Origin: Alphaproteobacteria bacterium
GTDB taxonomy: Bacteria; Pseudomonadota; Alphaproteobacteria; UBA9219; RGZA01
Assembly: GCA_033762625.1 (NCBI GenBank)
Contig: JANRLI010000007.1
Location: 151,541 to 215,540 of the forward strand
Direction: 5' to 3'
Length of the DNA stretch: 64,000 bases
The notes below the pieces were generated by a model that saw only the letters and a list, made by a program, of their open reading frames with translations, did no database searches and was not told where the DNA came from. The translations under genes and the position numbers were made by a program. Within the stretch, counting starts at the first letter, position 1. Every line of letters starts with the position of its first letter. Below, piece after piece: positions 47,936-64,000 of this stretch.

Positions 47936-48613
47936 TTGACCATGGCTACCAATCTTCTTATGCCCAAGGCGACGGCTGTATGGCTTGTTGAAAATACAGC
48001 GCTTAGCTTTGACCAGATTTCCGAATTCTGCGAATTACATCCGCTGGAAGTCAAAGCGATTGCCGATGGCGAAGTAAATATCGGCATGGTGGGCCTCAAC
48101 CCTATTTTGAATGGCCAGATTACCAAGGAAGAAATCGAACGCTGCGAAAAAGACCCCAGCGCAAAAATTTCCATGAAGGTGAACAAGCTGCCGGAAGTGG
48201 CAACGCGCCAAAAGGGCCCACGTTATACGCCTGTGACCAAACGCGGCGATAAGCCCGATGCTATCGCATGGCTGGTAAAGAACCATCCGGAATTGACCGA
48301 TGGGCAGCTGGTAAACCTGATTGGTACAACCAAAAGCACCATCGAAAAAATCCGTGACCGTTCGCACTGGAATATGAGCAATATCAAACCCCGCGATCCC
48401 GTATATTTGGGATTGTGCAAACAAACCGATTTAAATGCAGCGGTTGAAAAAAGCCGTAAGCATTTGCCAAAGGAACAACAGGCCGCATTGGCCTCAGCGG
48501 ATGCAGCAACAGCAGGCAACGAATCCGAAGTGGGTTTGGTGTCAGGCTTTGGCAGCAGCAATGATAGCCAGCAGCCATCAGATGAAGGTTTCGAAAAGCT
48601 GATGCGCGGCTAA
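47936..48613 (+). CDS. DUF1013-family protein (alphaproteobacterial)
   Basis: ATAVWLVENTALSFDQISEFCELHPLEVKAIADGEV and a second repeated half (AIAWLVKNHPELTDGQLVNLIGTTKSTIEKIRDR) are characteristic of DUF1013. Confidence 0.65.
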   Translation: MTMATNLLMPKATAVWLVENTALSFDQISEFCELHPLEVKAIADGEVNIGMVGLNPILNGQITKEEIERCEKDPSAKISMKVNKLPEVATRQKGPRYTPVTKRGDKPDAIAWLVKNHPELTDGQLVNLIGTTKSTIEKIRDRSHWNMSNIKPRDPVYLGLCKQTDLNAAVEKSRKHLPKEQQAALASADAATAGNESEVGLVSGFGSSNDSQQPSDEGFEKLMRG

Positions 48614-48714
48614 GGAATATCAGCAACGGCAGCCTTAAAAGGTTGTCCTTGCTTTTCGGTTATTTAAGGCCTAAACAGGCCGCATGTTTAGCAAAGACGC
48701 GGATTAACTTCCGC

Positions 48715-48743
48715 TATTTGGTGACGCGGGATAGAGCAGCCCG
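48715..48743 (+). repeat. 29-bp direct repeat duplicating the first 19 nt of tRNA-Met plus 10 nt of 5' flank
   Basis: tatttggtgacgcgggatagagcagcccg recurs identically at 48798-48826 (10 nt of flank, then tRNA-Met 5' end 48808-48826). An inverted copy gctaccgggctgct of tRNA D-arm sequence lies at 48771-48784. Confidence 0.7.
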
Positions 48744-48807
48744 CGGTTTGCACAAGCAAACTAACAAAATGCTACCGGGCTGCTTTGCAGCGCGGTTTAT
48801 TTGGTGA

Positions 48808-48884
<77 letters not shown>

Positions 48885-48913
48885 AACTTTTCTCAATAAA
48901 ATCAATGAACTAA

Positions 48914-48937
48914 GCGGCCCGTTGCGGGCCGTTTTTA
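48914..48937 (+). terminator. rho-independent terminator after tRNA-Met
   Basis: GGCCCgttgcGGGCC hairpin followed by GTTTTT. Confidence 0.55.
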
Positions 48938-49086
48938 TGTGCCATGCACCGTTTTCGTGCACCTCCATGATTTCCCATATATATCAGCTGTTTACACGAA
49001 TTCCGGCGTCCGTTCCCATCGGTCAACTACCGTTCCATGGCACAAATTTGGCACATGAAATTGGGATCGTTTGAGCCCAGCTTCGT

Positions 49087-51759
49087 TCAGAAGTTGTACT
49101 TCTTCCGGCGCTGCATAAATGCCTCCTTGCCGCCCTCAAGGATTTCCTCGGCCAGCGCGGCGACGCTCTTCTTGTCGATCGAGCCCATATGCTCCGGTGG
49201 AACATCGGCATGCCCATCACCTGCTTCGCCGACCGCCCTCATGCCAATGATCAGCTCTGCGTCGCCGAGCACTGGAATGTTGGCATTGTGAGAGGAGAAG
49301 ATGAACTGACGTCTGCGCTTCTCAGCACGGATGCGTGGCACGATGCCCTCGGAGATGAACCGGTTATCGAGATTGTCTTCCGGCTGGTCGAGCACCAGCG
49401 GAGCCTCTGCATCGAGCAGCAATAGATACAGCAGCGCCGTCGCTTTCTGCCCTGTCGACAGATCTCCCAGTTTTCGCCATTCCGGCGGTGCGCGCTCTGC
49501 ACCGACGTTCAACTCGATTTCAGTAACGTGCGGCAGATCTAACTCTTCTACTAGCATTGGTAGCTCTGGCCCGGCGGCCGCCAATTTCTCTCCTTGCGCG
49601 GTCGGTATACCGAATTCCTTGTTAAGGGGCTCCTTTCCTGCCCGCAGCGCCTCCGCCAACGCCCCCAGCGACAATTGCTCCTTCTTCGCTATTGCGGCGC
49701 TGGCCTCGGCAAAGCGACCAGGGCGCTGCTTAATGAGATCGAGAAGGGCTGTGCGGTCGGCGCCATAGCGAACAGTGACTCGTAGGCGATCCGGCAGTTC
49801 TCGGCTCACCTTCTTGGCGGCTTTTTCCAACCGCTGGAACGTCTCACGCTTAAGGTCCTCCCAGGCGGCAAGATCATTGCGCCGCCGCTGCTCGAAGGCT
49901 TTTTGTCGCGTCTCCAACGCTGCCTTTTGGCCCTGCAAAGGTGACAAGCGCTCGATGTCCTGGCGGAGCTTGATGAACTCGTTGCCGTCGATCTTATCCC
50001 TTTGTAGATCGCGCAAGGCAGCCTCGTAAGCTTGTTGCGACGCCTTTTTCTCCGTATCGATGGCGCTAGCTACAGAGGCGATTTCGCTTTCGGCTACGGC
50101 CAAAGCATTTGCCAGCAACTTTTGCGCCTCTTCCACGGCGGCCTTCAACCGTGTGATCGTTGCGCCCAGTCCCTTGAGCAATTCAGCCGCCGGTAGCTCC
50201 TTCAATGCCACCTCTGAGATGAAATCGGCATCCACGTCGACTGCTTCTAGCAGGCCATCGCGGGCATCGCGGACCGGCTGCAGCCGTTGTTTAGCTGTGC
50301 TGATGATGGCTTCGGCCTTCACGATGACGTCGCGGGATTTAAGCTTCTCCTCGACACCGGCGGCACGATAACGGTTCAGCGTTTCCGTCAACGCCGGCAA
50401 AGCTGCTAGTTGCTCGTCAACTTTTGTGGCTTTTCCTATGCAATCGAGAATGCCTTGGCGACTTTCCTTCAGCTTTTCCTGGAGGTCCTGGTACCTCTCG
50501 TCGGCCGCGCCATCTACCGCGACAAAGCGATATAGCAGTGATGTCAGTTTCTCCGGGCTGCGCGCTAGTTCCGCCAACTCGTTCTGGCCATAGACAGCGG
50601 TTCCGCGGACGATGTCTATGGGCTTTTGTTTCAACACGTCGCCGTTTTCGTCAATGACCCTCGGCGGATCAGGCACGGTTCGTTCGATCAGGAAGCGGCG
50701 CCGGTCTGGCTGGTAAGACTGCACGAGCAAGGAGATCTTGGTACCGCTCTTCAACACACCGCTGATAATACCATTGTGAATGTCTTTGGCATCGTCGCCT
50801 ACTGGCTCAAGCCCCAGCACGTAGCGCAGACTCTCGATCACCGTGGACTTTCCTGAGCCGCGCCCTCCAATGAGGACGTTTAGGTTCTCGTTGAAATGTA
50901 TCCGGCAGCTTCGGAGGAACCCCTCCGTCTCCCAAGCCATTCCGATGAATTCGACGTGCTCTTCAGGGCCCGGATCGCTGGCTAGACGAATGCGGGAGCT
51001 TGGATCGAGGAATGCTTGCCGGAGCCCTTCGATTGTGGGCTCAGTCATCTTGACCATGCACCATGCACCGCCGCGCGAAACATCATCCGGGCTCTTCACG
51101 TCGCCGCAGTTTAGCACGCTGATATGCCGGTCACGATGATAGGCAGGGTCAGTGTTCTTAAGGATCGGTCTCACATCCTCCGGTGCATCATTGACCGGTC
51201 CGGGAATAGCACAGGCCGCGAGTTCTTCGTGCCTCCAGATGGCGCTTCGTGCTTTTCCAGCCTGTAGTGCCCGAAATAGTCCACCGGCGCTGGCTACATG
51301 AGCTACGATGCACTGCATCTCCCATTTCGGGCAATTGTCCAGCAGTTCGCCTGCCGATAGCTCACCGAGCGGCGAAGCTTCCTCATCGTCATGCACTCCG
51401 CAGGCGCTGATGCAAGACTGTACGGCATCAAAGGTCTTAGCGGGGTCGAAGAGGCAAAGGACGTGGACGCCCTCGCGTGTCACTGCCTCGAAACCGGGGA
51501 ACACCACGATGCCAGCAGCCCGCGCGGCGTTGGCAAGGCTTTCAGCACCCCTTATCCGGTAGTGATCGGTGATAGCGATGACCTCGATATCAGCGTCACG
51601 GCATGCCTTGATGATCGCTTTATTGTACTCATCTTCGCTCTTGTACGCAGTCGGGTGCTTGTGACGGAGAACGTAGTCAAATGTGTTGACTTGGAATGCG
51701 CACCGGAAAAAGCGCGATCCGTTCGGCAATGCCTTCAGTTGTTCTAGAAAAGGATGCAT
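49087..51759 (-). CDS. PHP phosphoesterase domain fused to an SbcC/Rad50/SMC-like coiled-coil ATPase (890 aa); last gene of the defence operon
   Basis: N-terminal ~270 aa is PHP-like (IAITDHYRIRG, FPGFEAV). It has Walker A LIGGRGSGKST, a long coiled-coil middle, a C-terminal ABC signature LSTGQKATAL and Walker B/D-loop PLVLDQPEDNLD. Confidence 0.7.
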   Translation of the reverse strand: MHPFLEQLKALPNGSRFFRCAFQVNTFDYVLRHKHPTAYKSEDEYNKAIIKACRDADIEVIAITDHYRIRGAESLANAARAAGIVVFPGFEAVTREGVHVLCLFDPAKTFDAVQSCISACGVHDDEEASPLGELSAGELLDNCPKWEMQCIVAHVASAGGLFRALQAGKARSAIWRHEELAACAIPGPVNDAPEDVRPILKNTDPAYHRDRHISVLNCGDVKSPDDVSRGGAWCMVKMTEPTIEGLRQAFLDPSSRIRLASDPGPEEHVEFIGMAWETEGFLRSCRIHFNENLNVLIGGRGSGKSTVIESLRYVLGLEPVGDDAKDIHNGIISGVLKSGTKISLLVQSYQPDRRRFLIERTVPDPPRVIDENGDVLKQKPIDIVRGTAVYGQNELAELARSPEKLTSLLYRFVAVDGAADERYQDLQEKLKESRQGILDCIGKATKVDEQLAALPALTETLNRYRAAGVEEKLKSRDVIVKAEAIISTAKQRLQPVRDARDGLLEAVDVDADFISEVALKELPAAELLKGLGATITRLKAAVEEAQKLLANALAVAESEIASVASAIDTEKKASQQAYEAALRDLQRDKIDGNEFIKLRQDIERLSPLQGQKAALETRQKAFEQRRRNDLAAWEDLKRETFQRLEKAAKKVSRELPDRLRVTVRYGADRTALLDLIKQRPGRFAEASAAIAKKEQLSLGALAEALRAGKEPLNKEFGIPTAQGEKLAAAGPELPMLVEELDLPHVTEIELNVGAERAPPEWRKLGDLSTGQKATALLYLLLLDAEAPLVLDQPEDNLDNRFISEGIVPRIRAEKRRRQFIFSSHNANIPVLGDAELIIGMRAVGEAGDGHADVPPEHMGSIDKKSVAALAEEILEGGKEAFMQRRKKYNF

Positions 51760-51770
51760 AAAATCTCGGC

Positions 51771-54700
51771 CTATACTTGGAAAATTTCATCGAGCGACGT
51801 TGCGTGCACAAAACGTGCAGGATTGTCAGCCGCGGCAATCGCAGTGAAGTGGGCTTTTCCGCACGCTATCTTGGCGGCTTCCTTGTCGCGCAGATCATCC
51901 TTGAACAGGCTGCCCTTGGTCTCGACGACGAAGTAAAGGCGCTCGGTGCCGTTCTTCTCGACCAGTACGGCCCAGTCGGGATTGTAGAAGCCGAGAGGGG
52001 TGGGTACTTTGAACCATTGCGGAAGCTTGGCGTAGACGCGGACAGCATCGTTCGCTTCGAGTGCTTCCGCAAAGGGGCGTTCGATGGTCTCTGAATCATA
52101 TACGACGTACTCGTAGACCGAGCGTTTGGACGCGATCGCGTTCTTCATGAAGCGCACCAGCTCCTGACTCTTGAAAAGCTGCTGACAGTAGAATTGGTCG
52201 TCGCCGAGCCGCTGATACTTGATGCCGTCTACGAGCGCGAGGCGCTTGGTGCGGTTGATGCACTCAGCGGCAATCTCGATGAATTCCTGCGGGTTACGTT
52301 TGAAGTCGTTGAGCCGACCGCTGTCCTTCAAGATGCGCACGATGCTGCGTCGGGTGAGCTGGGTCTTATCTTGCAAATCTGTGAGTAGGTCCGGCAGTTC
52401 TATGTCGTTCTCATCCAGCGTGATGTAATTGGTGCTGGTCGCATCGCCGGCAATCACGCCCCCTTTACCGATGGCTAGATCGGCCTTTCGGACATGGATG
52501 CGCGCTTTACTGATGGCGGGGCCGTCACCCAACGCTTTTGCACAGCTTGCTATCAGCTTCTCGTTGTCGAATTCCACTCGGTAAGTCGTCTTGTGCTTTA
52601 TGCGGTCCCATAGCTCTTTGAACTCTGGGCTATCCAGAACGGCCTGCCGAGTCCGAATGGTTTTCTTGGCATCCGCATCTTTGATTTCCAGGCGACCGGC
52701 GAGCTTGCGAAGTATCTCGCGCACTTGAGCAGCGTGTGGTGCAAGGTGCTTAGGCAGGGTAAGCGTATTATCTTTTAAAGCTTTGCGCAGCTCGTCCTGG
52801 ACCTTGCCTTGGGCATTCACGAGGCCTTCACCTTTCAGGTGCTCGAAGATTGCCTTCGACTCATCGAAGCCGAGCACGCCGAGTGTGCCATCAGCCTTCG
52901 TCACTGTGATGGCAGCGAACTGCTGCGGTTCCACGATGCCAAACCGGTAGCCGGTCTCTCGCTCGATCTCCGTCTGCAATTGCTCGGCGAAGCTCTCGTA
53001 GCTTTCGTTGGCTATGACCGTCAGGATGTTAACGTTCGTGTCGCGCACACGCTCGCCATTCTGATTGACGCAGATGCGCAAGCCGCGCCCGATGCTCTGG
53101 CGGCGCTCGCGTTCCGTGCCGATTTCACGCAGCGCGCAAATCTGGAAGACGTTCGGGTTGTCCCAGCCTTCGCGTAGCGCGGAGTGGGAGAAAATGAACT
53201 TCAGCTTGGTATCGAAGCTGAGCAGCTTCTCCTTGTCGCGCATGATGAGATTGTAGGCGCGCTCGGCGTTGTCCCGGTTCGACTGGTTGTTCTCAGCCGT
53301 GTCGCTCCACGCGCCCTTCTTGTCGATGGAGAAATAGCCATTGTGGACGTCCGCCGCTTCGGTCGTTACGTCGACATCTTTGAACAGCGTCTGGTACTCG
53401 GGAAGCTTGGCCGCGCGGCGGTACTCCTCCTCGAACATCAGTGCGTACTTGCCTTTGTGAGCTGTCGACTGCTTCTTGCCGCCGATCTCCTTCTCCTCGT
53501 AGCGGCGATAGTTCTCGACCGCATCGATAAAGAACAGGCTCAGCACTTTGATGCCGAGGGGGGCAAGGCGCACCTCGGCATCCAGATGCTCTTTGATTGT
53601 GCGGCGGATCATCTGACGCTTGACTTGATCCGGATCGACCTCGCCAATAGCCTGGCCGGTCTCCAGGAACTTCTCTTCCCCTGGCATCTTGATCTCGGCG
53701 AGCTGCTGGCCACGGCCAGCGCGTATCTCGCCGATGCGATAGCCGCGATAAACCTGCCGTCCTGTCAGCTCCTCCAGATCGTCACCATCGCGCACTGCTT
53801 TTTCCATGCGCCGCACGCCGCCTTGCTGCTGTACGTCGATCTCGACGCGCGCGGTGACGCCATTGGCACGCGTGCTCGACGTGGCGACGAGACGGATATA
53901 CGGCTTGTTGTGAACGCCCTCGACTTCCATGCCGGCGACGGAGATCTGCTTGACCAGCTTCCGCTCGTAGGCATCTACGGCATCGAGCCGGTAGACCATG
54001 TGATGCTTGTCGGCGTGGGTTGCCGAATAGCGCAATGTGCTCAGCGGATTGAGCTTCTCAATGGCTTTGCGACCCTGGCCTTCGAGACCGCCGTCGACGG
54101 ATTGCGGCTCGTCGATGATGACGATTGGCCGGGTTGCGGAGACCAGATCAATCGGGCGTTCGTCGGCGAGCTTCTCGTTGCGGCGATACATGACGTTGGT
54201 TGTTGGCCTGTCGCGCGCATCAAGATGCTGCGCTTCGTCCTCGTCACCGAAGCGATTGATGGCGCCGACGGTGATGACCATGATGCGGATGTGCGGGCTT
54301 GTGGCGAAGTCGCGCACGAGGCCGAGCTTGGCGGAATCATAGATGAAGAAATCGTAGCCTTTGGCCGAAGGGAAGTACTGCTCGAAGTGTTCGCGCGTGA
54401 TCTGCAGCGTCTTGAACACGCCCTCCTTGATGGCGATGGAGGGGACGACTATGACGAACTTGGTGAAGCCGTACTGCCGGTTCAGCTCGAAGATAGTGCG
54501 GAGATAGACGTAGGTCTTGCCGGTGCCGGTCTCCATCTCGACGGTGAAGTCGCCGGAAGAGAGCGTGTCGGAGGGCCGAACGCCGTTGCGCAGCTGCACA
54601 GCATGTAGGTTGGCTAGCAATTCGTCGTCCAGCAGGGTGAGGCGGTTGCCGATGCCTAGTCCAGACTCTTCAAGCCCGAGCGACTTTTGCATTCCAGGCT

Positions 54701-54863
54701 TCACGCCGAGATCGGCGCCGCCGAACTCAAGGCCGATCTGCCCACGAGTTGGCTTAGTGACAGTGAACTCGGTGCGGCAGATTTCTTGGCCGCGGAAAAG
54801 GTCAGCGACAGCGTTGACAGCTTGTTCCTGGAAGTCGAGGGGCCATTCAAAGTGAAGCTTCAT
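51771..54863 (-). CDS. res: type III restriction enzyme Res subunit (SF2 helicase plus C-terminal PD-(D/E)xK endonuclease)
   Basis: Motif I ETGTGKTYV, motif II VIIDEPQS. The C-terminus FYNPDWAVLVEKNGTERLYFVVETKGS is a PD-D/ExK nuclease. 1030 aa. It lies 10 nt downstream of mod. Confidence 0.85.
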   Translation of the reverse strand: MKLHFEWPLDFQEQAVNAVADLFRGQEICRTEFTVTKPTRGQIGLEFGGADLGVKPGMQKSLGLEESGLGIGNRLTLLDDELLANLHAVQLRNGVRPSDTLSSGDFTVEMETGTGKTYVYLRTIFELNRQYGFTKFVIVVPSIAIKEGVFKTLQITREHFEQYFPSAKGYDFFIYDSAKLGLVRDFATSPHIRIMVITVGAINRFGDEDEAQHLDARDRPTTNVMYRRNEKLADERPIDLVSATRPIVIIDEPQSVDGGLEGQGRKAIEKLNPLSTLRYSATHADKHHMVYRLDAVDAYERKLVKQISVAGMEVEGVHNKPYIRLVATSSTRANGVTARVEIDVQQQGGVRRMEKAVRDGDDLEELTGRQVYRGYRIGEIRAGRGQQLAEIKMPGEEKFLETGQAIGEVDPDQVKRQMIRRTIKEHLDAEVRLAPLGIKVLSLFFIDAVENYRRYEEKEIGGKKQSTAHKGKYALMFEEEYRRAAKLPEYQTLFKDVDVTTEAADVHNGYFSIDKKGAWSDTAENNQSNRDNAERAYNLIMRDKEKLLSFDTKLKFIFSHSALREGWDNPNVFQICALREIGTERERRQSIGRGLRICVNQNGERVRDTNVNILTVIANESYESFAEQLQTEIERETGYRFGIVEPQQFAAITVTKADGTLGVLGFDESKAIFEHLKGEGLVNAQGKVQDELRKALKDNTLTLPKHLAPHAAQVREILRKLAGRLEIKDADAKKTIRTRQAVLDSPEFKELWDRIKHKTTYRVEFDNEKLIASCAKALGDGPAISKARIHVRKADLAIGKGGVIAGDATSTNYITLDENDIELPDLLTDLQDKTQLTRRSIVRILKDSGRLNDFKRNPQEFIEIAAECINRTKRLALVDGIKYQRLGDDQFYCQQLFKSQELVRFMKNAIASKRSVYEYVVYDSETIERPFAEALEANDAVRVYAKLPQWFKVPTPLGFYNPDWAVLVEKNGTERLYFVVETKGSLFKDDLRDKEAAKIACGKAHFTAIAAADNPARFVHATSLDEIFQV

Positions 54864-54873
54864 TGGCCGATCC

Positions 54874-56871
54874 TCACAAGCTGCGCACGATCATCGGGCG
54901 ATCTTCACGCGCTTGCGCGAGAATGGCGGTGAGGTTCGTCTTGGCCACATCATCTGCGAAGGCACTGTCGCGGAACACGACCACAGTCTCACCAGCGGGA
55001 GCCAGCTCCTTGTGCCAGTCGGCGATGCCGTGAGCAAGCTTCTCGACGTCCTTTGCAGATATCTTGGTATTCAGGCACGCCATGAGTGTGCCGGCGCCAA
55101 TGTTGTAGACGGTCTTGCCCGCGATTTTCTTCTCTTCGAGCGGTACGGTCAGCTCCAAGCCGAGCTTCAACAATAGTTCGGCCAGGATATCTTTCTCCGT
55201 TCGGTCGGTCTTCAGGTGCTCAACAGATTCATCGAGAGTGCTAGCAATGTCATCGCGGCGTGGATCCCACGCACGGATGTTGCTCGTGTTGAGTTGAAAT
55301 GTTCGGAAGCCTAGGTCTCCTGCGAATAGCGGATTGGCAGACTTCAATCGAGCACCAGCACGCCGGAGCCTTTCCTTAGTCAACTCTGCAATGTTGCGGG
55401 GACGGTTCAATGCGTCACAAAGCTGTGCCGCGCCCCGTTGTTCCTTGTCATCGACGCTCAATGGCTCGGGCAGCTGAACTAGGATGAAACGCCGCTGGAC
55501 ATTGTCCGCAGAATTCAGCTGCATGACGGCTCTCGCGCTCGCGCCTGAGCCCGCAAAGAAGTCGAGCATTATGTCGCCAGTTTGCTTAAGCACAAAAGGA
55601 AAAAACGAAGTGAACAATCTTACTGGTTTGGGATTGCTAAATACTTTAACTTGCTCTGGAAAGTCTTCGCGCAAATCGTATGCGCCCAAGCGCCCATCTA
55701 ACTCAAGCAAGCTGGACAGTTTTTCCTCGTACTCATGAGCGTAAACTTTGAGTTCGACGATTTTATCGTGATCGTCGCCGAATAGTATTCGCCCCTCCGC
55801 TAAGAGCGTGTCCATTGTCTCCTTCGGGAAGCGATAGCCCATGAGGGGCTGCTTGCATGGTTTTTTAGTTGCCGGATGAATTACGTCGTAGCGATAGCCC
55901 TCTTTGCCAGGATTGTGAACGCTCTGACTGCCGGTATAAACACCGCCCTTATCGATGTACTTATACCTGTCCAAAGGCCAGAGTTCGCTCTTATGCTCCC
56001 GGAACCAAGACTCGTATTCTGCAGTCAACCGATCCCCCGAGTGGCGGGCCGCTAGTTCGGTTCCAACGCGAACCAGGACATCCTTTACGTCCGAAACCTT
56101 GGACTTCCATTCTTTCTCAATGGCATTGCGATCCTTGGCTATGGCCAGGATGTATTCGTGTTCGGTGGCAACATTCGTTGGATTGTTGTCGGTCGCGTTC
56201 TTCCACACCACAGTTCCGAGCACATTCTCGGCGCCGTAAATCTCATTGCACATCGCGGCGAGGTTTGCGTACTCAACGTTGTCTATGGAAATAAATATTA
56301 CGCCGTCGGACTTTAGAAGTGCGCGCGCCAGCCGCAAGCGCGGATACATCATATTCAGCCAGTCGGTGTGAAACCGCCCTGATGCATCCGTGTTCGACGA
56401 GATGCGTTTGTCCCCCTCGATCTGCCCTGTCAGTTCCAGGTAGTTGCGGATGTTGTCGCGGAAGTCGTCGGGATAGACGAAGTCCTTGCCGGTGTTGTAC
56501 GGCGGGTCGATGTAGATGAGCTTGACCTTGCCTGCGTAGCTCTTCTGCAGAAGCTTGAGCACCTCCAGATTGTCGCCCTCGATCATGAGGTTCTGCGTCG
56601 TGTCCCAATCGACGCTTTCCTCGGGGCAGGGGCGCAGCGTTCCAGTTGATGGTGTGAGCGCGAGTTGGCGTGCACGGCGCTTGCCGTGCCAGTTGAGGCC
56701 GTAGCGTTCCTCGCGCTCGTCGATCGTGCCGCCCAACAGCTGCTTCAGAACGTCGAAGTCGATCTTGCCTTCCTTGACGGCCTCGGGAAACAGCACCTTG
56801 AGCTGGTCGACATTTGTGGCGACAACGTCGGCACTCTTTGCCAGCGCATCCTCTGCATCGATCTTCTTCAT
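54874..56871 (-). CDS. mod: type III restriction-modification Mod subunit, N6-adenine DNA methyltransferase
   Basis: LIYIDPPYNTGKDF (motif IV DPPY), SAM motif FFAGSGASARAV, 665 aa. There is no separate specificity subunit. Confidence 0.85.
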   Translation of the reverse strand: MKKIDAEDALAKSADVVATNVDQLKVLFPEAVKEGKIDFDVLKQLLGGTIDEREERYGLNWHGKRRARQLALTPSTGTLRPCPEESVDWDTTQNLMIEGDNLEVLKLLQKSYAGKVKLIYIDPPYNTGKDFVYPDDFRDNIRNYLELTGQIEGDKRISSNTDASGRFHTDWLNMMYPRLRLARALLKSDGVIFISIDNVEYANLAAMCNEIYGAENVLGTVVWKNATDNNPTNVATEHEYILAIAKDRNAIEKEWKSKVSDVKDVLVRVGTELAARHSGDRLTAEYESWFREHKSELWPLDRYKYIDKGGVYTGSQSVHNPGKEGYRYDVIHPATKKPCKQPLMGYRFPKETMDTLLAEGRILFGDDHDKIVELKVYAHEYEEKLSSLLELDGRLGAYDLREDFPEQVKVFSNPKPVRLFTSFFPFVLKQTGDIMLDFFAGSGASARAVMQLNSADNVQRRFILVQLPEPLSVDDKEQRGAAQLCDALNRPRNIAELTKERLRRAGARLKSANPLFAGDLGFRTFQLNTSNIRAWDPRRDDIASTLDESVEHLKTDRTEKDILAELLLKLGLELTVPLEEKKIAGKTVYNIGAGTLMACLNTKISAKDVEKLAHGIADWHKELAPAGETVVVFRDSAFADDVAKTNLTAILAQAREDRPMIVRSL

Positions 56872-57638
56872 CCTTGCCCCCTCGCAAGTGTTGCCTTGGC
56901 CGCAACGAGCTCCGCCTCCAGCCTCTGGATGGCGAGGTTGAGCTCGACGCGGCGGTTAATCTGGGTTTCCCGCGCGGCCTTCTTGCGCAACATGGCAATC
57001 TCGCGTGTGACCCGCGTATGGGTGTCGAGCGCCGCGCGCCGCAAGGCCGCTTCCTCAGGAGACTTTGGCAGGTTGAACGCTCCCGTCAAGTTCGACGCAG
57101 CAAGCCCCGCACAGCAATCGATCCAGCCCTGATAGAGTGCCCACAAATGCTGCTGAGGCTGCCGGGCAATGCTCAAACTTGCCAAGAAGGTTGCCCCCAA
57201 CGCGTCACCCTCAGAGCCGGTTGTGGCACATACCAGGGGCCCATCGAGCACCACTGCGGCCTTTTCAGCCTGGGATGCGCGCTTGTGAGCCAGCGACAGC
57301 TGCACAGTCTCGCCGTCCGCTACGAGCAGAAGCACGGGGTAGGGCACGGCTCGATGGATCAACTCCGTCAAGCGGGCTACCTTCGCACCTTCACGAAGAG
57401 AGGCTGTGATGATGGCTATTTCCAGATATTCGCCTGCTTCACCTTTCCAAATGGGCACGCCAATGTTGGTTGGCTTGAGCGCGGCAATCCAGAGCAGCTC
57501 ATTGACGCCATCTTGTATGGCACGCTTGTCGGCAGCGGTCGGCGCACCCTGTTCGGTTAGCAGTTTCTTTGTAATGCGCTGATCAACCCGAGCAGTATCG
57601 GGGATGGCGAGAGCACTAATAACTGCGTCCAGCGTCAT
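56868..57638 (-). CDS. hypothetical protein, 256 aa; possibly DUF4391-like
   Basis: Overlaps the helicase stop and the mod start by 4 nt each. My family assignment is from memory of similar helicase/mod/res neighbourhoods. No catalytic motif is visible. Confidence 0.45.
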   Translation of the reverse strand: MTLDAVISALAIPDTARVDQRITKKLLTEQGAPTAADKRAIQDGVNELLWIAALKPTNIGVPIWKGEAGEYLEIAIITASLREGAKVARLTELIHRAVPYPVLLLVADGETVQLSLAHKRASQAEKAAVVLDGPLVCATTGSEGDALGATFLASLSIARQPQQHLWALYQGWIDCCAGLAASNLTGAFNLPKSPEEAALRRAALDTHTRVTREIAMLRKKAARETQINRRVELNLAIQRLEAELVAAKATLARGQG

Positions 57639-60600
57639 GTGCTGCCGCCTTTGCCCTCCTCAGGCAGTACGATGAGAAAGGCAACCACTTCAAAATCATT
57701 GATGCCTGCAAATTCGCCCTTCATGGCGTGTGTGCCGCCTGGCGCGAACAGGCTCGCTGCAGCGCGCTCCTCCTTCTTGCCGACAATGGAGGCAACTGCA
57801 CGCGCCAGCAGTTTTTGGTACGACGACATATCCGCACCTTGCTTTGTAGAGCGATCGAGGCGGGCCCATGCCTTGGCGTCCGGTTCCGTGCGATCAAGCG
57901 CCAGTCGCTTTAGGCGATCGAGCACCTGCTTGACCTGTGTGTAGGGCAGCAGGACGTCACCGCCGTCGCCGATATGGACGAGGTAGTGCGGTGCCAACGG
58001 GTAACCTGGCTCGATGCCTTGCAAGGCAGTCTCACTTGCCGCGCGAAGGCAGAAGATGACACCGGATGAGATTGCGCTGTCTCCGATTTGCGGAGCTGTC
58101 ACTACGGCAGACAAGCCGAGTGGCATTGCATCAAGTTCGGCGCGGCGACTCTTGATCTGACCTGCGAGATCGATGCGGAAATCGTTGAGCGTTAGATCGG
58201 CGATGGAAACGCCACTTGACAGATCCTCAAGGTCAATGACGGTGTCTTGGAGCTTCTGCAGCTGGTTACGGCGATATTCGAGGTCATTCATCTGATTACC
58301 AGACTGGTGCTCGATGACGTTTTCCTCTCCGGTTGCTGAAACGTCGAGCAGGACCATGCGTCCACTGACGCGCTGTTCGAGATTGATGTATTCGTCTAGC
58401 TCCATGTTGGGCCAAAAATTGACCAGCTGAACGGACGTGTTCGGCGAGCCGATGCGATCAATGCGCCCGAAACGCTGGATGATGCGAACCGGATTCCAGT
58501 GAATGTCATAGTTGATGAGAAAGTCGCAATCCTGGAGGTTCTGGCCTTCAGAGATGCAATCAGTGCCGATCAGAAGGTCAATCTCGCCTTCCTTAGCAAG
58601 CTCGGCAGGACGCTCCTTTGAGCGTGGCGAGAATGCGGCAAGGATGCTGCCAAGGTCGGCTCTCACAGACTTAAGAGTGGTGCGGTTTGGCCCCGCCCCT
58701 GTGACGAGCGCAGCATCGACGCGATGCTCCTTCGCAGCCCACGGAGCGAGCTCTTTGTAAAGATACTCAGCCGTATCGGCGAAAGCCGTAAAGATCAAAA
58801 TCTTGCGATTTTTGTCATTGAGTGGGTTAGCCATCTTGCGCGTGATGATATCGCGCAGATCGGCCAGTTTGGCATCCCGGCTCGGGATGACTTGGAGAGC
58901 TGCTTTGAGCAGTGCCGATAGCCGCTTCCGATCTTCATCGAGATCTTGGCGCCATCGCACGCGGTCAACATCGTGCAGCAGAACCTTCACTTTCCGTCCG
59001 ACCAGAAGAGACTCGAATGCAGCATCATCGACGTCGATATCGTCGATCGATACCTCCTCAACATCGTCGTCGTGGGCATCTATCCGGGCGATCACATGCT
59101 CCACATCCTTAAGCTGACGTTGGATTGTCAATGCGAATGAAGCGACGGAGCTTTCCATGCGCTTCAAGATGTTGACGCGCAGCAGGTGAACGAGGCTTTC
59201 CTCGCGGTCAACCTGCCGAAAAATGCTTTCGCCGCCACGGATCTTGGTACTGTATTTCTCATCGTAGGCGGCTTGCTTGTGGCGAAGCACGTAGCGCAGC
59301 GGGGCGTAGGCGGCGAGCGTCAATCGGCGGATTTCGTTGTTGATCTCGCGGATCGGCCGAAACTCAGCGGCGAGGTCCACGTCGGACTTAATGTTTAGCG
59401 GCTTGCGGCGCTCCGGGAAGCGGCCAGTTTCAGTGATCCCGTAGTATTTCTCGATGTGTTTGCGCGAACGCGCGATGGTCAGCAGATCAAGCAACTTGAA
59501 GTAGTCGAAGCCCAGCATCTCAATGAGGCGGGAGGGACGTCGATCCTCCTCAGCAAGGTCTGACCAGCGGTTGAACTGCGATTGGGCCTGACGAACCGTT
59601 GCTTCGATACTCGGAATGTTGTGGGTGGCTAGTGCCGTGTCATTTCCCTCGGTCGCGAACGCGATCTGGTTCTTGAGATCTGCGAGCCGATTGTTCACCG
59701 GCGTTGCCGATAGCATCAGCACCTTAGTCTTCACGCCAGCGCGGATAAGCCGGTTCATGAGACGGTCATACCGGGTCTCGCGTTCCTTGTGTGGCGCCTT
59801 GTTCCGGAAGTTATGAGACTCGTCTATGACGAGCAGATCGTAGTTTCCCCAGTTAACGTGGCTGAGGTCGATGTCACCTGATAGGCCACCATCGCGTGAT
59901 AGATCGGTGTGGTTGAGCACGTCGTAGTTTAAGCGGTCAGGGGCCAGCACGTTGCGGCGATCGTTGGCCTTATAAAGCGTCCAGTTGTCTCGGAGACGTT
60001 TGGGGCAGAGCACCAGCACGCGGTCATTGCGTAGTTCGTGATACTTGATGACCGCAAGAGCCTCGAACGTCTTTCCGAGACCAACACTGTCGGCGATGAT
60101 GCAGCCACCAAATCGCTGCAACTTATCGATCGCGCCAATCACTCCGTCTCGCTGAAACTTGAACAGTTTGTTCCAAACCACAGTGTCGCGAATGCCGGTT
60201 GCCGAACGGACAATGCGATCCTCGTCCAGTTCCTCACTCATGTCTTTGAAGATCTGGTAGAGTATATGGAAGTAGGCGCCAGCCGGCGCGTGTTCTGTTG
60301 CAAGCGAGGCAACGCGATCTACGAACGCTTGCTGAGAGTCAGGGTCATCTTTGAGTTGTGACCATTGAGATTCAAACCATTGCACGAGCGGCGCGGCATC
60401 CTGCTCATCCTCAGCTATTTGGATAAAGCCGATTTGGTTGCTGGGAGTGAGCCCGATACCGTCAGTTGTCAAAGCGCAGGTGCCGACATACGCGCGCTGC
60501 GCCTCTGACTGCGTGGCAATCATCAACGCTTGTGGGATCGCCGAAGTCGTAGAGCGAACGGCTATGGCCGAGCACCAACGAGCCGCTGTGCGCGCGATCC

Positions 60601-60841
60601 AGCGTGTTCGCAGTCGATTGCGAAACACGCGGTCAGCGTCTGATCCAAGAAGCGACTGCGCCGCATTCGAACTTCCAATAATCAACCTGCAACGTTCAGC
60701 GGTGGCCAGAGCCTCTTGAACCTCCTCGAAAGCAAAAAGGGAAAACTCCGGTGAACAGATATCCAGAGCTGTACCGGGTTTCACGAAGCCTCGAAGTTCG
60801 TCGACAAGGCGCTCGCTGCCCGAATTACGCAGAAGCTTCAT
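57635..60841 (-). CDS. SNF2-family helicase with a ~230-aa N-terminal domain of unknown function
   Basis: DExH box LLVIDESHNFRN and motif I ADSVGLGKT. C-terminal motifs V/VI LIGTDCISEGQNLQ and QRFGRIDRIGS. 1068 aa. The N-terminal domain may be a degenerate PLD-like nuclease fold. Confidence 0.8.
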   Translation of the reverse strand: MKLLRNSGSERLVDELRGFVKPGTALDICSPEFSLFAFEEVQEALATAERCRLIIGSSNAAQSLLGSDADRVFRNRLRTRWIARTAARWCSAIAVRSTTSAIPQALMIATQSEAQRAYVGTCALTTDGIGLTPSNQIGFIQIAEDEQDAAPLVQWFESQWSQLKDDPDSQQAFVDRVASLATEHAPAGAYFHILYQIFKDMSEELDEDRIVRSATGIRDTVVWNKLFKFQRDGVIGAIDKLQRFGGCIIADSVGLGKTFEALAVIKYHELRNDRVLVLCPKRLRDNWTLYKANDRRNVLAPDRLNYDVLNHTDLSRDGGLSGDIDLSHVNWGNYDLLVIDESHNFRNKAPHKERETRYDRLMNRLIRAGVKTKVLMLSATPVNNRLADLKNQIAFATEGNDTALATHNIPSIEATVRQAQSQFNRWSDLAEEDRRPSRLIEMLGFDYFKLLDLLTIARSRKHIEKYYGITETGRFPERRKPLNIKSDVDLAAEFRPIREINNEIRRLTLAAYAPLRYVLRHKQAAYDEKYSTKIRGGESIFRQVDREESLVHLLRVNILKRMESSVASFALTIQRQLKDVEHVIARIDAHDDDVEEVSIDDIDVDDAAFESLLVGRKVKVLLHDVDRVRWRQDLDEDRKRLSALLKAALQVIPSRDAKLADLRDIITRKMANPLNDKNRKILIFTAFADTAEYLYKELAPWAAKEHRVDAALVTGAGPNRTTLKSVRADLGSILAAFSPRSKERPAELAKEGEIDLLIGTDCISEGQNLQDCDFLINYDIHWNPVRIIQRFGRIDRIGSPNTSVQLVNFWPNMELDEYINLEQRVSGRMVLLDVSATGEENVIEHQSGNQMNDLEYRRNQLQKLQDTVIDLEDLSSGVSIADLTLNDFRIDLAGQIKSRRAELDAMPLGLSAVVTAPQIGDSAISSGVIFCLRAASETALQGIEPGYPLAPHYLVHIGDGGDVLLPYTQVKQVLDRLKRLALDRTEPDAKAWARLDRSTKQGADMSSYQKLLARAVASIVGKKEERAAASLFAPGGTHAMKGEFAGINDFEVVAFLIVLPEEGKGGST

Positions 60842-63069
60842 GGCGTCTCTCTGCGTTGCTGATGAGTGGTCTCAGTTCGATCCGAGGTATCGTCTACTTC
60901 ATCCCCAAGTCTCGCCAACAGTTCCTTCAGACTAACTCCATCAGCCTTCCAGACACGCCAACCGTTCTCCGATTTCCTAATCTGGCCTACACTGGCGTAG
61001 CACCGGACGGCTGCATCGCTAGGCGAGAAGATGCCATCAGCGATTTTGATGCCGCTCCCGGTGATTTGACCGGTGAAGCGGTGATCCTTGTATGAGAGTT
61101 GAAGTGCATCACCGCCTTTGAGGCTGCCAGATGCGATGAGGCGCTGTAGACGTTCTGTGAAGTGCGGTGTCGAAGTTGGTTCGGTCGCCGTCCTTTTGCG
61201 AGTGTCCGCCGGGCGCGGCCAGAGCGTGAGGCCACGTTCAAACAATTCATTGCCACGAGAGATGATGTCGGCTTCTGACCAACGCTTGTGTTCGCCACTG
61301 CGCAGCCAGGCATTGAGGCGCAGATCACTGTCTGTAACGATAGCTTTGCTTTTGCCTGCGAACGCGCCATTGCTGACCGAAGTGTTCAGCGCCTGTGTGA
61401 GCAATGTGAGGTTGCCAATCGTGTGTAATATGCGGCTACGGCAACGCTCGTGCGTTTCATCGTCACGGATTGGCATGCTATCAGCGTAGGGGTAGTCACT
61501 CAGCACATATTTCTGCGGCAACAAGTGCTCGATCGAAAGCTTTGTGGGAATCTGAAGCGCTTCGTTGCGCGTTGTGCGACTGACTTCTTCAATGGCTCTT
61601 AGCACCATGGCAGCACGCTCGGTGCGCGTCTTCATATAGATAGGTTCTGAAAGCCACGCTTTGCGGAACTCATCGTCAGACGGCCAAATCGCCGTCTTCT
61701 CCTCGGAGCGCAGCAGCTCATCGCGGATCGCATCGGCGATCGATGCGTGATCGCTTGCCGCCTTCTTCGCCTTGCTGAGAAGACCGAGGAAGAACTTGTT
61801 GTAGTTCTTGGTGGTTAGACCGCAAATCAATCGGCGCACAAGGAAGGATTCGAGATCTACGATGGCGCGTTCGAGCTGATCGGTCGGAAGCACGTCTTTG
61901 GGTTGCGCCATCAGGAAGAGGAGCAGGGGATAGACCGTGCTGGTGTCCAATGCTTTTAGGCGGCGCGCGAACACCGCGAGACGATCATTCCCTTCTGGTG
62001 CGATCAGCTGTTGGAACCGTGCGCTCTGCGTCTTGAGATCGGCGAGCAACTTTTCGACGTTGCCATCACCCTTCTCATGCCATTCGCGGAATTCTTTGAA
62101 GAGCTGGCCGATGTTCAGTTCACGCTCGGTGTGGAGCGTGAGGTAGTGGAAGAGGAAGAGATCGATGCGCGGGCGGGTGAGGCGGCCTTGTCGCTCCAGC
62201 ATGTGCCAGAAGCGATCTTCGCCTGTGTCGTCGGGCAGGTCCTCGCGCAGATCGTCGAAAGCCTTCCAGTAGTTCTCATAAAGTTTGTCGCTCGACTTGT
62301 CGGCCTTGGCCGTTGCCTTCAGGAACACGTAGTTGCGCACGAGATCGGATGGCAGCAGAGGCTGACCACGCGCATTCAGTGTCTCGAAGATCACCTGCGG
62401 ATCATCGCCCTGTTCAAGCTCGATCACCACGAACAGCAAAGAGGTGCGCATCGCCTGAGCGATCGCATGAATACGATCGGCCTTCTCGTCAGCCGTCTTT
62501 CCTTCATCGGCGAACTGCCGGATCACATCGGCAAAATAGAGGTACGCTTCCGCCATGCGCGGCAACGCTTGCTCCGCCGGCGAACCCTCACGCGCATAAA
62601 GTGCTTTGACCGCAGCTGGGCCGCCAGCACGCATCACGGCGCGAAACACATCTCGGTCGGCGTTGGTCGGCCAGACCTTCAGCTCTTCATCTGAACCTTC
62701 ACGATCGGGATTGACTGACCAGCGCGCCGCCTGCTTCTGGACGCGTTGATCGATTTCGGTCGCGCAATCGCGCAGCGCGGCGATGAACAGTTGGAGGGTC
62801 GTTAGGCGCTGCTGACCGTCGATGACATCTGCCTTCGCGATAGCACGGCCCTGAACCTGATTGATGCTCCACACTGCGGCGCCGAGGAAGTGCGAGCCAA
62901 GCTTTCCGGTGCTGTCCTGTAGCGCACGTTCGGCCTGCTTGCGGATGTCGTCCCAGAGAGGCTCCCATTGGTCGTCTTGGTTCCAGACATAGGCGCGCTG
63001 ATAGAGCGGGATGTCGTAGCGGCGCTCCTTCTCGAAGACGTCGTGGATCGTGAATTTGTGTGGCTGCAT
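60838..63069 (-). CDS. GmrSD-like nuclease (N-terminal DUF262 plus C-terminal DUF1524 His-Me finger)
   Basis: IPLYQRAYVW and DGQQRLTT (DUF262 DGQQR motif). C-terminal IEHLLPQ...HTIGNLTLLTQALNTSVSNGAF is an HNH-like block. The probable start is ATG 63069 (MQPHKFTIHDV) with a GGGGGGA ribosome-binding site. The ORF-table start is 63168. Confidence 0.75.
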   Translation of the reverse strand: MQPHKFTIHDVFEKERRYDIPLYQRAYVWNQDDQWEPLWDDIRKQAERALQDSTGKLGSHFLGAAVWSINQVQGRAIAKADVIDGQQRLTTLQLFIAALRDCATEIDQRVQKQAARWSVNPDREGSDEELKVWPTNADRDVFRAVMRAGGPAAVKALYAREGSPAEQALPRMAEAYLYFADVIRQFADEGKTADEKADRIHAIAQAMRTSLLFVVIELEQGDDPQVIFETLNARGQPLLPSDLVRNYVFLKATAKADKSSDKLYENYWKAFDDLREDLPDDTGEDRFWHMLERQGRLTRPRIDLFLFHYLTLHTERELNIGQLFKEFREWHEKGDGNVEKLLADLKTQSARFQQLIAPEGNDRLAVFARRLKALDTSTVYPLLLFLMAQPKDVLPTDQLERAIVDLESFLVRRLICGLTTKNYNKFFLGLLSKAKKAASDHASIADAIRDELLRSEEKTAIWPSDDEFRKAWLSEPIYMKTRTERAAMVLRAIEEVSRTTRNEALQIPTKLSIEHLLPQKYVLSDYPYADSMPIRDDETHERCRSRILHTIGNLTLLTQALNTSVSNGAFAGKSKAIVTDSDLRLNAWLRSGEHKRWSEADIISRGNELFERGLTLWPRPADTRKRTATEPTSTPHFTERLQRLIASGSLKGGDALQLSYKDHRFTGQITGSGIKIADGIFSPSDAAVRCYASVGQIRKSENGWRVWKADGVSLKELLARLGDEVDDTSDRTETTHQQRRETP

Positions 63070-63580
63070 GGCCGTCCCCCCCAGGTACCTTCCAGCATAA
63101 AGAACAGGGCGATAAACACAACGAGAGGCTGCATACTTCTTTGTTGAGAATGGGCGAGTTTTCCACATTTATTCAACGACTTGAAAGAAGGTGGGCGCGT
63201 CCGCCAGCAGTAGCGGCGGACCGGGCTCTCGTGAACCGAGCCGCCTGAAGGCGAAGTGCGGGCGTCTCGGCCATCCGGCATCGATCCCTCGCGCGTGTCG
63301 TTCAATGTGATGCCGGCAGTCCACTTGTCTCAGCATCGGTGACACTCAGCGATCGCCGCGTGATCCATAGATCGCGATGTCAGGTTCGCTGCCTGGTTGG
63401 TATTGGGCCCGCTCGGCTCACGTGGCGCGCTTTAGCGCCGCGTCGACCGCGCGCAAGGCATAAAGCCTCCTTCACTTCGTTGCGGCCCCTAAAGGGGTGC
63501 GCGCGGTCTCATGCCGCGTCGCTCCGGAAAGCGCGTTGAGCCGAGCATTGGGCCCGGCTCCGCACTTGAAGGAGCTCACC

Positions 63581-64000
63581 ATGACACGTCCATCTCATCC
63601 AGATCTGCATCAACAGGTCACCGACACCATCATCCGTGCGGTCGAGCAGGGCGGCACCACCGTCACGCTGCCCTGGCATCGCTCTGGACTGCCTGCAATG
63701 CTGCCGCACAATGCGCACTCGAAAGCGGCTTACAACGGCATCAACATCGTCGCACTGTGGTCCGCAGCCATGCTGCGCGGTTATCCGCATGCGATCTGGG
63801 CTACCTATCGCCAATGGGCCGAGCTGGGCGCGCAGGTGCGCAAAGGCGAGAAGGCCTCGACTGTCATTTTCTACAAGGAGCTCGACGTCGATGTGCCTGA
63901 CGACGCTTCTGGCGATGACGGCAAACGTCGCGTTGCCCGCGCGTCATCCGTGTTCAATGCTGCGCAGGTCGATGGCTTCACTGCGGCTGAACTGCCGGAG
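63581..64000 (+). CDS. ardC: ArdC-like (DUF1738) antirestriction/ssDNA-binding protein N-terminal domain; 3'-truncated by the window edge
   Basis: My own translation from ATG 63581 is open to 64000. MTRPSHPDLHQQVTDTIIRAVEQGG...PWHR...PHNAHSKAAYNGINIVALW...WATYRQWAELGAQVRKGEKASTVIFY matches the conserved ArdC N-terminus. It sits in a very GC-rich stretch. Confidence 0.65.
   Translation, partial: MTRPSHPDLHQQVTDTIIRAVEQGGTTVTLPWHRSGLPAMLPHNAHSKAAYNGINIVALWSAAMLRGYPHAIWATYRQWAELGAQVRKGEKASTVIFYKELDVDVPDDASGDDGKRRVARASSVFNAAQVDGFTAAELPE

Follow-up and report, generated by a model that had tools for sequence, protein, structure and literature searches.

The subject of this work is a cluster of four adjacent genes in a 64,000-nucleotide stretch of alphaproteobacterial DNA (positions 151,541 to 215,540 of contig JANRLI010000007.1, assembly GCA_033762625.1), which in its full length is referred to below as the window. 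These genes, which in the order of their transcription encode a Snf2-family helicase, a small protein of the DUF4391 family, and the modification (Mod) and restriction (Res) subunits of a type III restriction-modification (R-M) system, probably constitute a single mobile defence cassette, in which restriction by the type III enzyme would be assisted by the helicase. The cassette present in the window is real and intact; it typically represents a variant of type III R-M systems that is widespread but functionally unstudied, and it is not a categorically new kind of system. Type III systems provide the textbook case of restriction by the passive sliding of a two-subunit enzyme, and the results described here concern a large and phylogenetically broad subfamily of these systems, found in hundreds of microbes, which has an extra Snf2 motor in its operon.

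Conservation and spread of the cassette

In a scan based on the DUF4391 protein, in which one genome per species was considered, 525 relatives were found, and the best 80 loci, which come from many phyla, were analysed. With a position counted only where the contig leaves room for it, the helicase gene is upstream of DUF4391 in 70 of 70 loci, and downstream of DUF4391 the Mod gene is present in 46 of 47 loci and the Res gene in 44 of 45. The sole exception for Mod and Res is a Magnetococcales contig (L023, PEAP01000104.1), where DUF4391 lies at the contig start and is followed by at least 4.5 kb in which neither gene is found. The preliminary description of this region had considered the helicase and its small partner as a pair coupled to mod, and had allowed that homologues of this pair might occur mostly without R-M genes nearby. 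This is not the case, as a close linkage of the pair to type III mod and res is almost universal, also in distantly related plasmid cassettes. The junction between the helicase and DUF4391 genes is ATGA in 45 of 53 loci, and the remaining junctions of the cassette, including that between DUF4391 and Mod, are mostly short gaps. The flanks of the cassette are unconserved, with 182 of 202 flanking open reading frames (ORFs) being singletons, and due to this the four genes can be regarded as a self-contained unit.

The order helicase-DUF4391-Mod-Res is also retained where the DUF4391 protein is only 21-28% identical, viz. on plasmids of E. coli, Enterococcus and Vibrio, and it is likewise seen in Shewanella, Phaeobacter, Bacillus and Listeria, the last with a divergent partner protein of 185 amino acids (aa). 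Plasmids carrying the cassette are known from E. coli, Enterococcus, Listeria, Lactococcus, Bacillus, Acinetobacter and Vibrio, and there is also one archaeal plasmid of this kind; on natural E. coli plasmids it is found in 10 of 5426 complete genomes. Because such plasmids carry it, with intact copies e.g. on NZ_CP029688.1 and CP044300.1, the cassette is directly testable. Some copies have decayed: in two loci (L018 and L053) the helicase and Res genes are both split into several ORFs within the same locus, and in three others (L055, L061 and L069) only the helicase or the Mod gene is split. On the E. coli IncF plasmid pCUVM3.1 (L081, 11931-14879), Res comprises only 630 aa, with an ISApl1 transposase after it, and appears to have been truncated by this insertion, whereas the helicase, DUF4391 and Mod are intact.

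In the window, the stop codon of the helicase gene overlaps the start codon of the DUF4391 gene (ATGA, read as acATGAcg), and an overlap of the same kind joins DUF4391 to Mod (ggATGAag). The coordinates, sizes and overlaps that had been given earlier for the helicase and DUF4391 ORFs were all found to be correct when the ORFs and junctions were read directly; a further ATGA overlap, missing from the preliminary description, joins the gene for a GmrSD-like enzyme to the start of the helicase gene. Mod and Res are separated by a gap of 10 nucleotides, and a gap of 11 nucleotides separates Res from a TrlF-like gene; in all, the minus strand carries six genes in a head-to-tail row from position 49087 to 63168. 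These ORFs are not due to chance, as every protein encoded by them has hundreds of conserved homologues.

The Mod protein matches the Pfam family N6_N4_Mtase and, over its full length, the PADLOC model MTase_III (694 bits), and its DPPY motif (residue 122) precedes the FxGxG motif (FAGSG, residue 439), which is the order of motifs in beta-class methyltransferases. In most of the other loci the best match to Mod spans only the first ~250 residues, the middle of the protein being divergent, and these short matches are consistent with a variable target-recognition domain. The Res protein matches Pfam ResIII and RE_endonuc (PF19778) and the PADLOC model REase_III (1221 bits), and it contains the motifs of type III Res proteins, viz. 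TGTGKT (113), DEPQ, QSIGRG, PD (962-963) and ETK (981-983), all of which, including K116, D963, E981 and K983, are invariant in the alignment. Mod and Res thus carry every sequence feature by which a working type III enzyme would be predicted. However, with the NCBIfam model PRK15483, which describes the Res family of EcoP15I and StyLTI, Res scores 359 bits versus a cut-off of 564 bits, and its identity to plasmid-borne Res proteins of the EcoP1/P15 type is ~28% over 55-70% of the length. Judged by its sequence, the Res of the window belongs to a distinct subfamily with a PF19778 endonuclease domain, which usually travels with a Snf2 helicase.

In the searchable literature, the coverage of which is incomplete, no description of the helicase-DUF4391-Mod-Res cassette was found, and the mentions of DUF4391 that were found consist of an enrichment table and a probable typographical error for DUF7941. 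REBASE flags helicase-domain genes beside some R-M systems, and genome annotations name the two extra genes merely as 'helicase-related protein' and 'DUF4391'.

The helicase, its DUF4391 partner and their relation to known systems

All Snf2 motifs of the helicase are intact, viz. GLGKT (254-258, with the Walker A lysine K257), DESH (340-343), SATP (378) and QRFGRIDRIG (789, motif VI), and the presence of motifs I, II (DExH), III and VI and of a long insert between the two lobes places the protein in the Swi2/Snf2 family. It matches the Pfam families SNF2-rel_dom (39.5 bits versus a threshold of 24.9), Helicase_C and ResIII; its best matches among PDB sequences are RapA and eukaryotic Snf2 remodellers, and its best PADLOC model is 'HKD+Snf2' (PDLC01075, E 8e-113), the alignment with which begins at residue 145. 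The helicase is the most conserved component of the cassette, with a mean identity of 74% across phyla, and within it the Snf2 motor is the most conserved part of the entire cassette (77-86% mean pairwise identity across phyla). The C-terminal region (residues 831-1068) is also conserved (Table 1), and it has no Pfam match at E<=1 beyond noise.

As stated in the preliminary description, the ~230 N-terminal residues of the helicase are devoid of helicase motifs, the first of which occurs at residue 254, with the Pfam SNF2-rel_dom match beginning at residue 237. It had also been suggested there that this region could be a degenerate domain of the phospholipase D (PLD) type, known for its HKD catalytic motif, and this suggestion is supported by structural and profile comparisons and by the absence of the catalytic residues. 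An AlphaFold2 (AF2) model of residues 1-235 was built from a 68-sequence alignment and has a mean predicted local distance difference test score (pLDDT) of 84 and a predicted template modelling score (pTM) of 0.77. All of the PDB matches listed for this model by Foldseek are proteins of the PLD superfamily or with PLD-like domains; the best of these is SauUSI (7clg, E 4e-5), and the others include Zucchini, TrmBL2, FAM83B, NgoAVII R, Nuc, BfiI and Tdp1. Further, when N-termini of the window type were compared by hhalign with a Calothrix helicase that is positive for PLDc_2, a probability of 94% (E 1.4e-7) was obtained. Residues ~166-230 form a helical linker; however, the N-terminal domain as a whole is not a simple linker, since the model indicates a folded domain of the PLD superfamily.

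The catalytic motif HxK(x)4D(x)6G(S/T)xN has been lost from this domain, and the loss is common to the 68 aligned homologues. No HxK occurs anywhere in the 1068-aa helicase, the 68 homologues have no conserved His or Lys within the PLD-fold core (residues 1-165), and the Pfam PLDc models do not match the helicase even at E<=1. The place of the motif His is taken by Q104 in the hhalign alignment or A109 in that made by MAFFT, and that of the motif Lys by L106 or Q111, respectively; both alignments put A123 at the position of the motif Asn and the invariant G120 at that of the motif Gly, which is the only motif residue kept. An equal degeneracy is found in the far-diverged plasmid helicases of E. 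coli, Enterococcus and Vibrio, and due to this the loss of the HKD residues can be considered old and stable. More distant relatives (28% identity) from plasmids of Calothrix, Nostoc and Halalkalicoccus have an intact PLDc_2 motif, LHAKAYIF...GSSN, in the corresponding place. The pseudo-PLD domain is acidic (isoelectric point (pI) 5.1), with many conserved polar residues, and its mean identity across phyla is 52%; because many of its other positions are conserved in the 68-homologue alignment, it appears to be under selection for a non-catalytic purpose. By its motifs, the helicase is thus predicted to be an ATPase-competent Snf2 motor with a dead ancestral nuclease domain.

The small partner protein belongs to the Pfam family DUF4391 (PF14335), for which it had earlier been proposed as a candidate member (E 3e-64, 217.4 bits versus a cut-off of 29.9, model positions 1-232 of 232); at E<=10 no second Pfam family and no DUF3780 is found in it. 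The family comprises 2044 clusters at 50% identity (E<=1e-3). In the AF2 model of this protein (pLDDT 92.7), an acidic alpha/beta core (residues 1-160, pI 5.7) is predicted to be followed by a basic three-helix hairpin (residues 165-255, pI 9.9). Foldseek gave no credible match of this fold among PDB or viral structures, and the sole result of a profile search of PDB sequences was a chance match to a coiled coil. The residues that are invariant in the entire family are few (P13, K24, K38, E73, PYP 99-101, R120, Y169, E224, Q226 and N228) and do not form a recognisable catalytic motif. A reading of the core as a PD-(D/E)XK nuclease was considered and rejected, as there is no conserved D...ExK constellation, the D66 that is nearly invariant in the close clade is replaced by Gly in the window protein, and Foldseek shows no nuclease fold. 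On the Listeria monocytogenes plasmid pCFSAN004330 (L084, 11184-11741) the partner is a 185-aa 'hypothetical protein', the match of which to DUF4391 (hhalign 91%) is confined to the N-terminal core, and the 185-aa partners of this Listeria/Enterococcus clade apparently lack most of the helical hairpin. Among 50,697 phage records there is only one relative of DUF4391, which is 25% identical and is annotated as a 'methyl-accepting chemotaxis protein' (Erysipelothrix phage phi1605, MF172979.1, 78392-78988).

With the classical type III systems (EcoP1I, EcoP15I and StyLTI) the cassette shares an operon in which mod is followed by res, a beta-class Mod with a central variable region, and a Res combining a superfamily 2 (SF2) ATPase with a PD-ExK endonuclease. 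However, the classical systems consist of two genes, whereas the cassette has two more, which are conserved upstream. By architecture and sequence, the nearest relatives of the window helicase are MtsD of the MANTIS systems (Gao_RL, BREX-related type 2) and the HKD-Snf2 helicases that are encoded beside Eco57I-type methyltransferases. MtsD, with ~1000-1100 aa, also has an N-terminal PLD fold and a Snf2/SF2 motor in a SauUSI-like architecture, and the MANTIS operon likewise contains a small stand-alone protein of orphan fold (MtsB) and a methyltransferase that defines specificity. MtsD forms a PLD+SF2 dimer resembling SauUSI and acts with the small co-regulator and the methyltransferase (bioRxiv 10.64898/2026.09.23.753747; NAR 2026, PMC12839542), and in both MtsD and SauUSI the PLD domains pair, building one active site (bioRxiv 10.64898/2026.09.23.753747). 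However, the cassette has no DUF499 AAA+ ATPase (MtsA) and no DUF3780 protein (MtsB), its Mod is of type III and not of the DUF1156 type, and an equivalent of H122, the catalytic His of MtsD, is absent from the window helicase, due to which cutting must come from Res. With no such domains in the operon and with HKD lost, the cassette is not a member of MANTIS/Gao_RL.

The helicases of the Calothrix, Nostoc and Halalkalicoccus plasmids noted above, which lie beside Eco57I/MmeI-type methyltransferases, are true homologues of the window helicase with the same domain order. They differ from it in that their active-site motif is intact and they are paired with a large methyltransferase of the type IIG/BREX-like kind, and not with DUF4391, Mod and Res. 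The order of a PLD domain and an SF2 motor is also found in SauUSI, a type IV enzyme and the best structural match of the N-terminus, but SauUSI is a single protein with an active HKD motif, which has a target-recognition domain of its own for DNA that is modified and dimerises via its PLD domains.

Class 1 DISARM (DrmD, DrmMI, DrmA, DrmB and DrmC) resembles the cassette in having a Snf2 helicase, an adenine methyltransferase, and PLD-fold and SF2 parts in one operon, and the DrmD models match the helicase in part (161 bits versus a cut-off of 610). However, the cassette lacks the DrmA/YprA helicase and the DUF1998 protein DrmB, and its PLD domain is fused and inactive; no DrmA, DrmB or DrmC domain is present in the six genes of the island, in agreement with the earlier remark that the gene set does not fit DISARM. 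The 'DISARM-like logic' that had nevertheless been proposed is a loose analogy, and the closest analogues are to be found among the HKD-Snf2 helicase-nucleases, e.g. MtsD. On a Bacillus cereus plasmid (L085, NZ_AP022875.1, 269924-288456), helicase-DUF4391-Mod-Res comes immediately after genes for an AAA ATPase, drmA and a DUF1998 protein (drmB) that lie on the same strand, an arrangement that is either a DISARM core joined to the cassette or two adjacent systems. The helicase is present on 15 Bacillus plasmid records, with several from B. cereus among those listed.

Two modules and the possible role of the helicase-DUF4391 pair

In the preliminary description it was suggested that the small protein may be an adaptor or specificity factor for Mod. 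Pairwise distances were compared by Mantel tests for 35 loci with four intact genes (34 genome loci and the window), and the correlation was high between the helicase and DUF4391 (r 0.83) and between Mod and Res (r 0.77), whereas across the two pairs it was only 0.26-0.34. As DUF4391 and Mod are adjacent genes, this break between the modules is not a simple effect of distance. With r 0.34 for DUF4391 and Mod, the earlier suggestion is not favoured, and DUF4391 is better described as the predicted partner of the helicase. A 1419-aa protein with a C-terminal DUF4391 domain was considered as a possible Snf2-DUF4391 fusion. However, it is actually a hitchhiker of the RNase_H_2/superfamily 1 (SF1) helicase type fused or merged with DUF4391, and it should therefore not be interpreted as evidence for a contact between DUF4391 and the Snf2 helicase.

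In a second scan, Res was used as the query against metagenome contigs, and 43 loci with enough upstream sequence were obtained. The helicase-DUF4391 pair is present in 25 of these, including nearly all of those in which Res is at least 57% identical; in 11 of the 43, where the identity of Res is 38-42%, the operon contains a different Snf2 helicase (L140, L147, L148, L150, L153, L159, L163, L164, L166, L167 and L168), and 7 show no helicase in view. Mod and Res alone are also found on a plasmid of S. epidermidis. The helicase of the sister clade (~950-1030 aa), which is encoded after Res in one locus, belongs with a Mod-Res of the same subfamily. Its Snf2 domain is right at the N-terminus, and its C-terminal extension of ~400 aa has a coiled coil at the end; it lacks both a PLD-like domain and a DUF4391 partner, and it has only the motor in common with the window helicase (25% identity, residues 244-811). 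The sister clade appears to have recruited a Snf2 motor independently, and on this comparison of sequences the Mod-Res subfamily has recruited such motors at least twice. As Mod-Res is found without the pair and the pair almost never without Mod-Res, the pair depends on Mod-Res but the reverse is not strictly true. Further, since Mod and Res are able to persist on their own, it is improbable that protective methylation requires the pair or that Res cannot do without it as a brake.

Within a helicase-assisted cassette, the division of labour would be as follows. Mod-Res would recognise the sites, hemimethylate them and cut, and the helicase and DUF4391 would form a separate complex, acting as an ATP-driven translocase or remodeller of double-stranded DNA. 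By analogy with MtsD and SauUSI, the helicase probably dimerises via its pseudo-PLD domains, the ancestral nuclease role of the complex would have been handed over to Res, and the complex would boost or broaden restriction. On this view, the loss of either accessory gene, or the Walker A change K257A, would be expected to weaken the restriction of phages without toxicity and with methylation unaffected. More tentatively, the pair may act as a second motor complex altering the manner in which the type III enzyme finds and destroys DNA, with ATP-driven translocation replacing or supplementing passive one-dimensional sliding.

Several points weigh against the view that the helicase assists restriction. 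The contribution of the motor is a matter of conjecture, the candidates being long-range communication, the clearing of roadblocks on linear or protein-coated phage DNA, and processing after the cut. Due to the weak correlation across the modules, they might only share an operon, and the pseudo-PLD domain may bind a ligand or partner instead of merely dimerising. The set of 80 genome loci was obtained via DUF4391 and consists of the closest relatives of a single family. Lastly, no interaction of MtsD with MtsA-C could be detected in vitro (bioRxiv 10.64898/2026.09.23.753747), and the analogue is thus itself mechanistically unsettled.

If the pair instead restrains Res as a regulatory or anti-autoimmunity module, which corresponds to the helicase-gated restriction of the preliminary description, then the helicase would be a Snf2 remodeller that strips or gates Mod-Res and shields the host chromosome, e.g. 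in a naive host that is still unmethylated. The high mobility of the cassette (plasmids, islands and unconserved flanks) and the non-destructive role suggested by a nuclease-dead domain are in keeping with this, as is the match to RapA, since Snf2 proteins of the RapA type release stalled proteins from DNA. However, Mod-Res of the same subfamily persist intact without the pair, and Res is therefore not intrinsically intolerable, which speaks against an obligatory gate; moreover, some cassettes already have a small helix-turn-helix regulator upstream. A restraining role is due to this considered unlikely.

It could likewise be interpreted from the weak cross-module co-evolution that the pair is an independent defence or back-up, perhaps triggered by inhibition of the type III enzyme, or a selfish hitchhiker sharing the operon, particularly since such operons attract embedded hitchhikers (RhuM, DUF1016, GmrSD_N, Abi_2 and others) and a different Snf2 helicase fills the same place in the sister clade. 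Such an interpretation is improbable, as the pair, unlike the hitchhikers, has a fixed position in essentially all loci, down to 21% identity of DUF4391; it contains neither a nuclease nor any other effector domain, is almost never alone (1 of 47 loci), and in L018 and L053 frameshifts are found in both modules at once. The Mod of the window is a full-length canonical type III protein, and Mods of this kind methylate alone; further, loci with Mod-Res but no pair exist and would be suicidal were methylation dependent on the pair, and DUF4391 co-evolves with the helicase and not with Mod, from which it is mostly separated by a short gap, and hence uncoupled, in other loci. There is consequently little likelihood that the pair loads or activates the methyltransferase in an ATP-dependent manner, like MtsA/MtsB with MtsC or the BREX partners with PglX, acting in modification or target recognition and not in cleavage, even though methylation by MtsC in MANTIS requires both the ATPase MtsA and the small co-regulator MtsB (bioRxiv 10.64898/2026.09.23.753747) and DUF4391 is small and its gene immediately precedes that of Mod, which it overlaps by ATGA in the window.

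If the pair does act as a second motor of the type III enzyme, then targets missed by classical type III systems could be restricted, viz. sites in a single orientation, linear DNA with free ends and protein-coated phage DNA. The cassette would in that case represent a distinct and widespread class of restriction systems that depend on ATP ('two-motor type III'), in DUF4391 there would be a new fold by which a Snf2 motor is coupled to an R-M enzyme, and the independent recruitment of a Snf2 motor by the sister clade would be convergent evidence for the same principle. More generally, an understanding of the pair would clarify the role of a nuclease-dead PLD-helicase, give a role to an orphan fold and improve the annotation of defence islands, and it would link type III R-M mechanistically to MANTIS, BREX-related systems and DISARM.

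Genomic setting and neighbouring genes

The coordinates of the cassette genes, of the regions within the helicase and of the neighbouring features are summarised in Table 1. At ~48 kb, exactly beside the tRNA-Met gene, the G+C content rises from ~0.48 to 0.54-0.60, and the remainder of the window (~0.48-0.50) carries housekeeping genes including gyrA, putA, rpsA and leuA. The defence genes (~48000-64000) sit on a foreign island inserted beside tRNA-Met, which extends past the end of the window, and accordingly no integrase or far boundary is seen. A scan of the island for promoters and terminators gave a result no better than that for shuffled sequence, and a megablast search with the island as the query yielded nothing useful in E. 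coli genomes and plasmids.

Table 1. Features of the defence island and its edge, in window coordinates
Feature	Position	Strand	Order of transcription	Basis
Snf2-family helicase, 1068 aa	57635-60841	-	2
PLD-superfamily fold (predicted) without HKD catalytic residues, helicase residues 1-200	60242-60841	-		AF2, Foldseek, hhalign
Snf2 motor, two RecA-like lobes and long insert, helicase residues 225-830	58352-60169	-		Pfam, motifs, PDB matches
Conserved C-terminal region of helicase, residues 831-1068	57638-58351	-		72-76% mean pairwise identity
DUF4391 protein, 256 aa	56868-57638	-	3
Type III Mod, beta-class N6-adenine methyltransferase, 665 aa	54874-56871	-	4
Type III Res, SF2 ATPase and C-terminal PD-ExK endonuclease, 1030 aa	51771-54863	-	5
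GmrSD-like type IV restriction enzyme (DUF262/DUF1524) with C-terminal RAMA domain, 776 aa	60838-63168	-	1	Pfam GmrSD_N, GmrSD_C, RAMA; PADLOC mREase_IV
TrlF-family (TrlF-like) PHP and ABC/SMC-like ATPase protein, Ppl-related, 890 aa	49087-51759	-	6	NCBIfam NF045780, 485 bits vs 350 cut-off; PADLOC Ppl, 4e-38
tRNA-Met gene, edge of the high-GC island bearing the cassette	48808-48884	+		ARAGORN
TrcR cell-cycle regulator gene, just before tRNA-Met	47936-48613

The GmrSD-like and TrlF-like genes are hitchhikers or neighbours on the island and not part of the core of the cassette. Genes of the GmrSD-like kind occur in 3 of the 80 related loci and in differing positions, on account of which this gene was rejected as a member of the system. 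A TrlF-like gene after Res occurs in only one other locus (Methylomonas, L027), and with two loci in all it was likewise rejected; Ppl, to which it is related, is an anti-phage protein. Because of the ATGA overlap with the helicase gene, a modification-dependent enzyme (the GmrSD-like one) is in the window co-transcribed with one that is blocked by modification.

Unrelated defence-type genes are also inserted within the cassettes of other genomes (L005, L006, L015, L031, L033, L043, L047, L058, L061 and others), with the Mod|Res and DUF4391|Mod junctions being the hot spots of insertion. One example of this kind is RhuM, which is present in 13 loci, always between Mod and Res. A DUF1016/YhcG nuclease is inserted in 6 loci, a combination of DUF4062, HATPase_c_4 and a winged helix-turn-helix (wHTH) in another set of 6, and GmrSD_N (DUF262) in 5; 23S-rRNA-IVP proteins, Abi_2, Bro-N, Schlafen-like proteins and large SF1 helicases are also found. 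R-M operons habitually host cargo genes of this sort, and the insertions fit with this. A DUF4391 protein identical to that of the window is present on a record from an alphaproteobacterial metagenome-assembled genome (MAG), and the cassette closest to that of the window is in a MAG of the Hyphomicrobiaceae.

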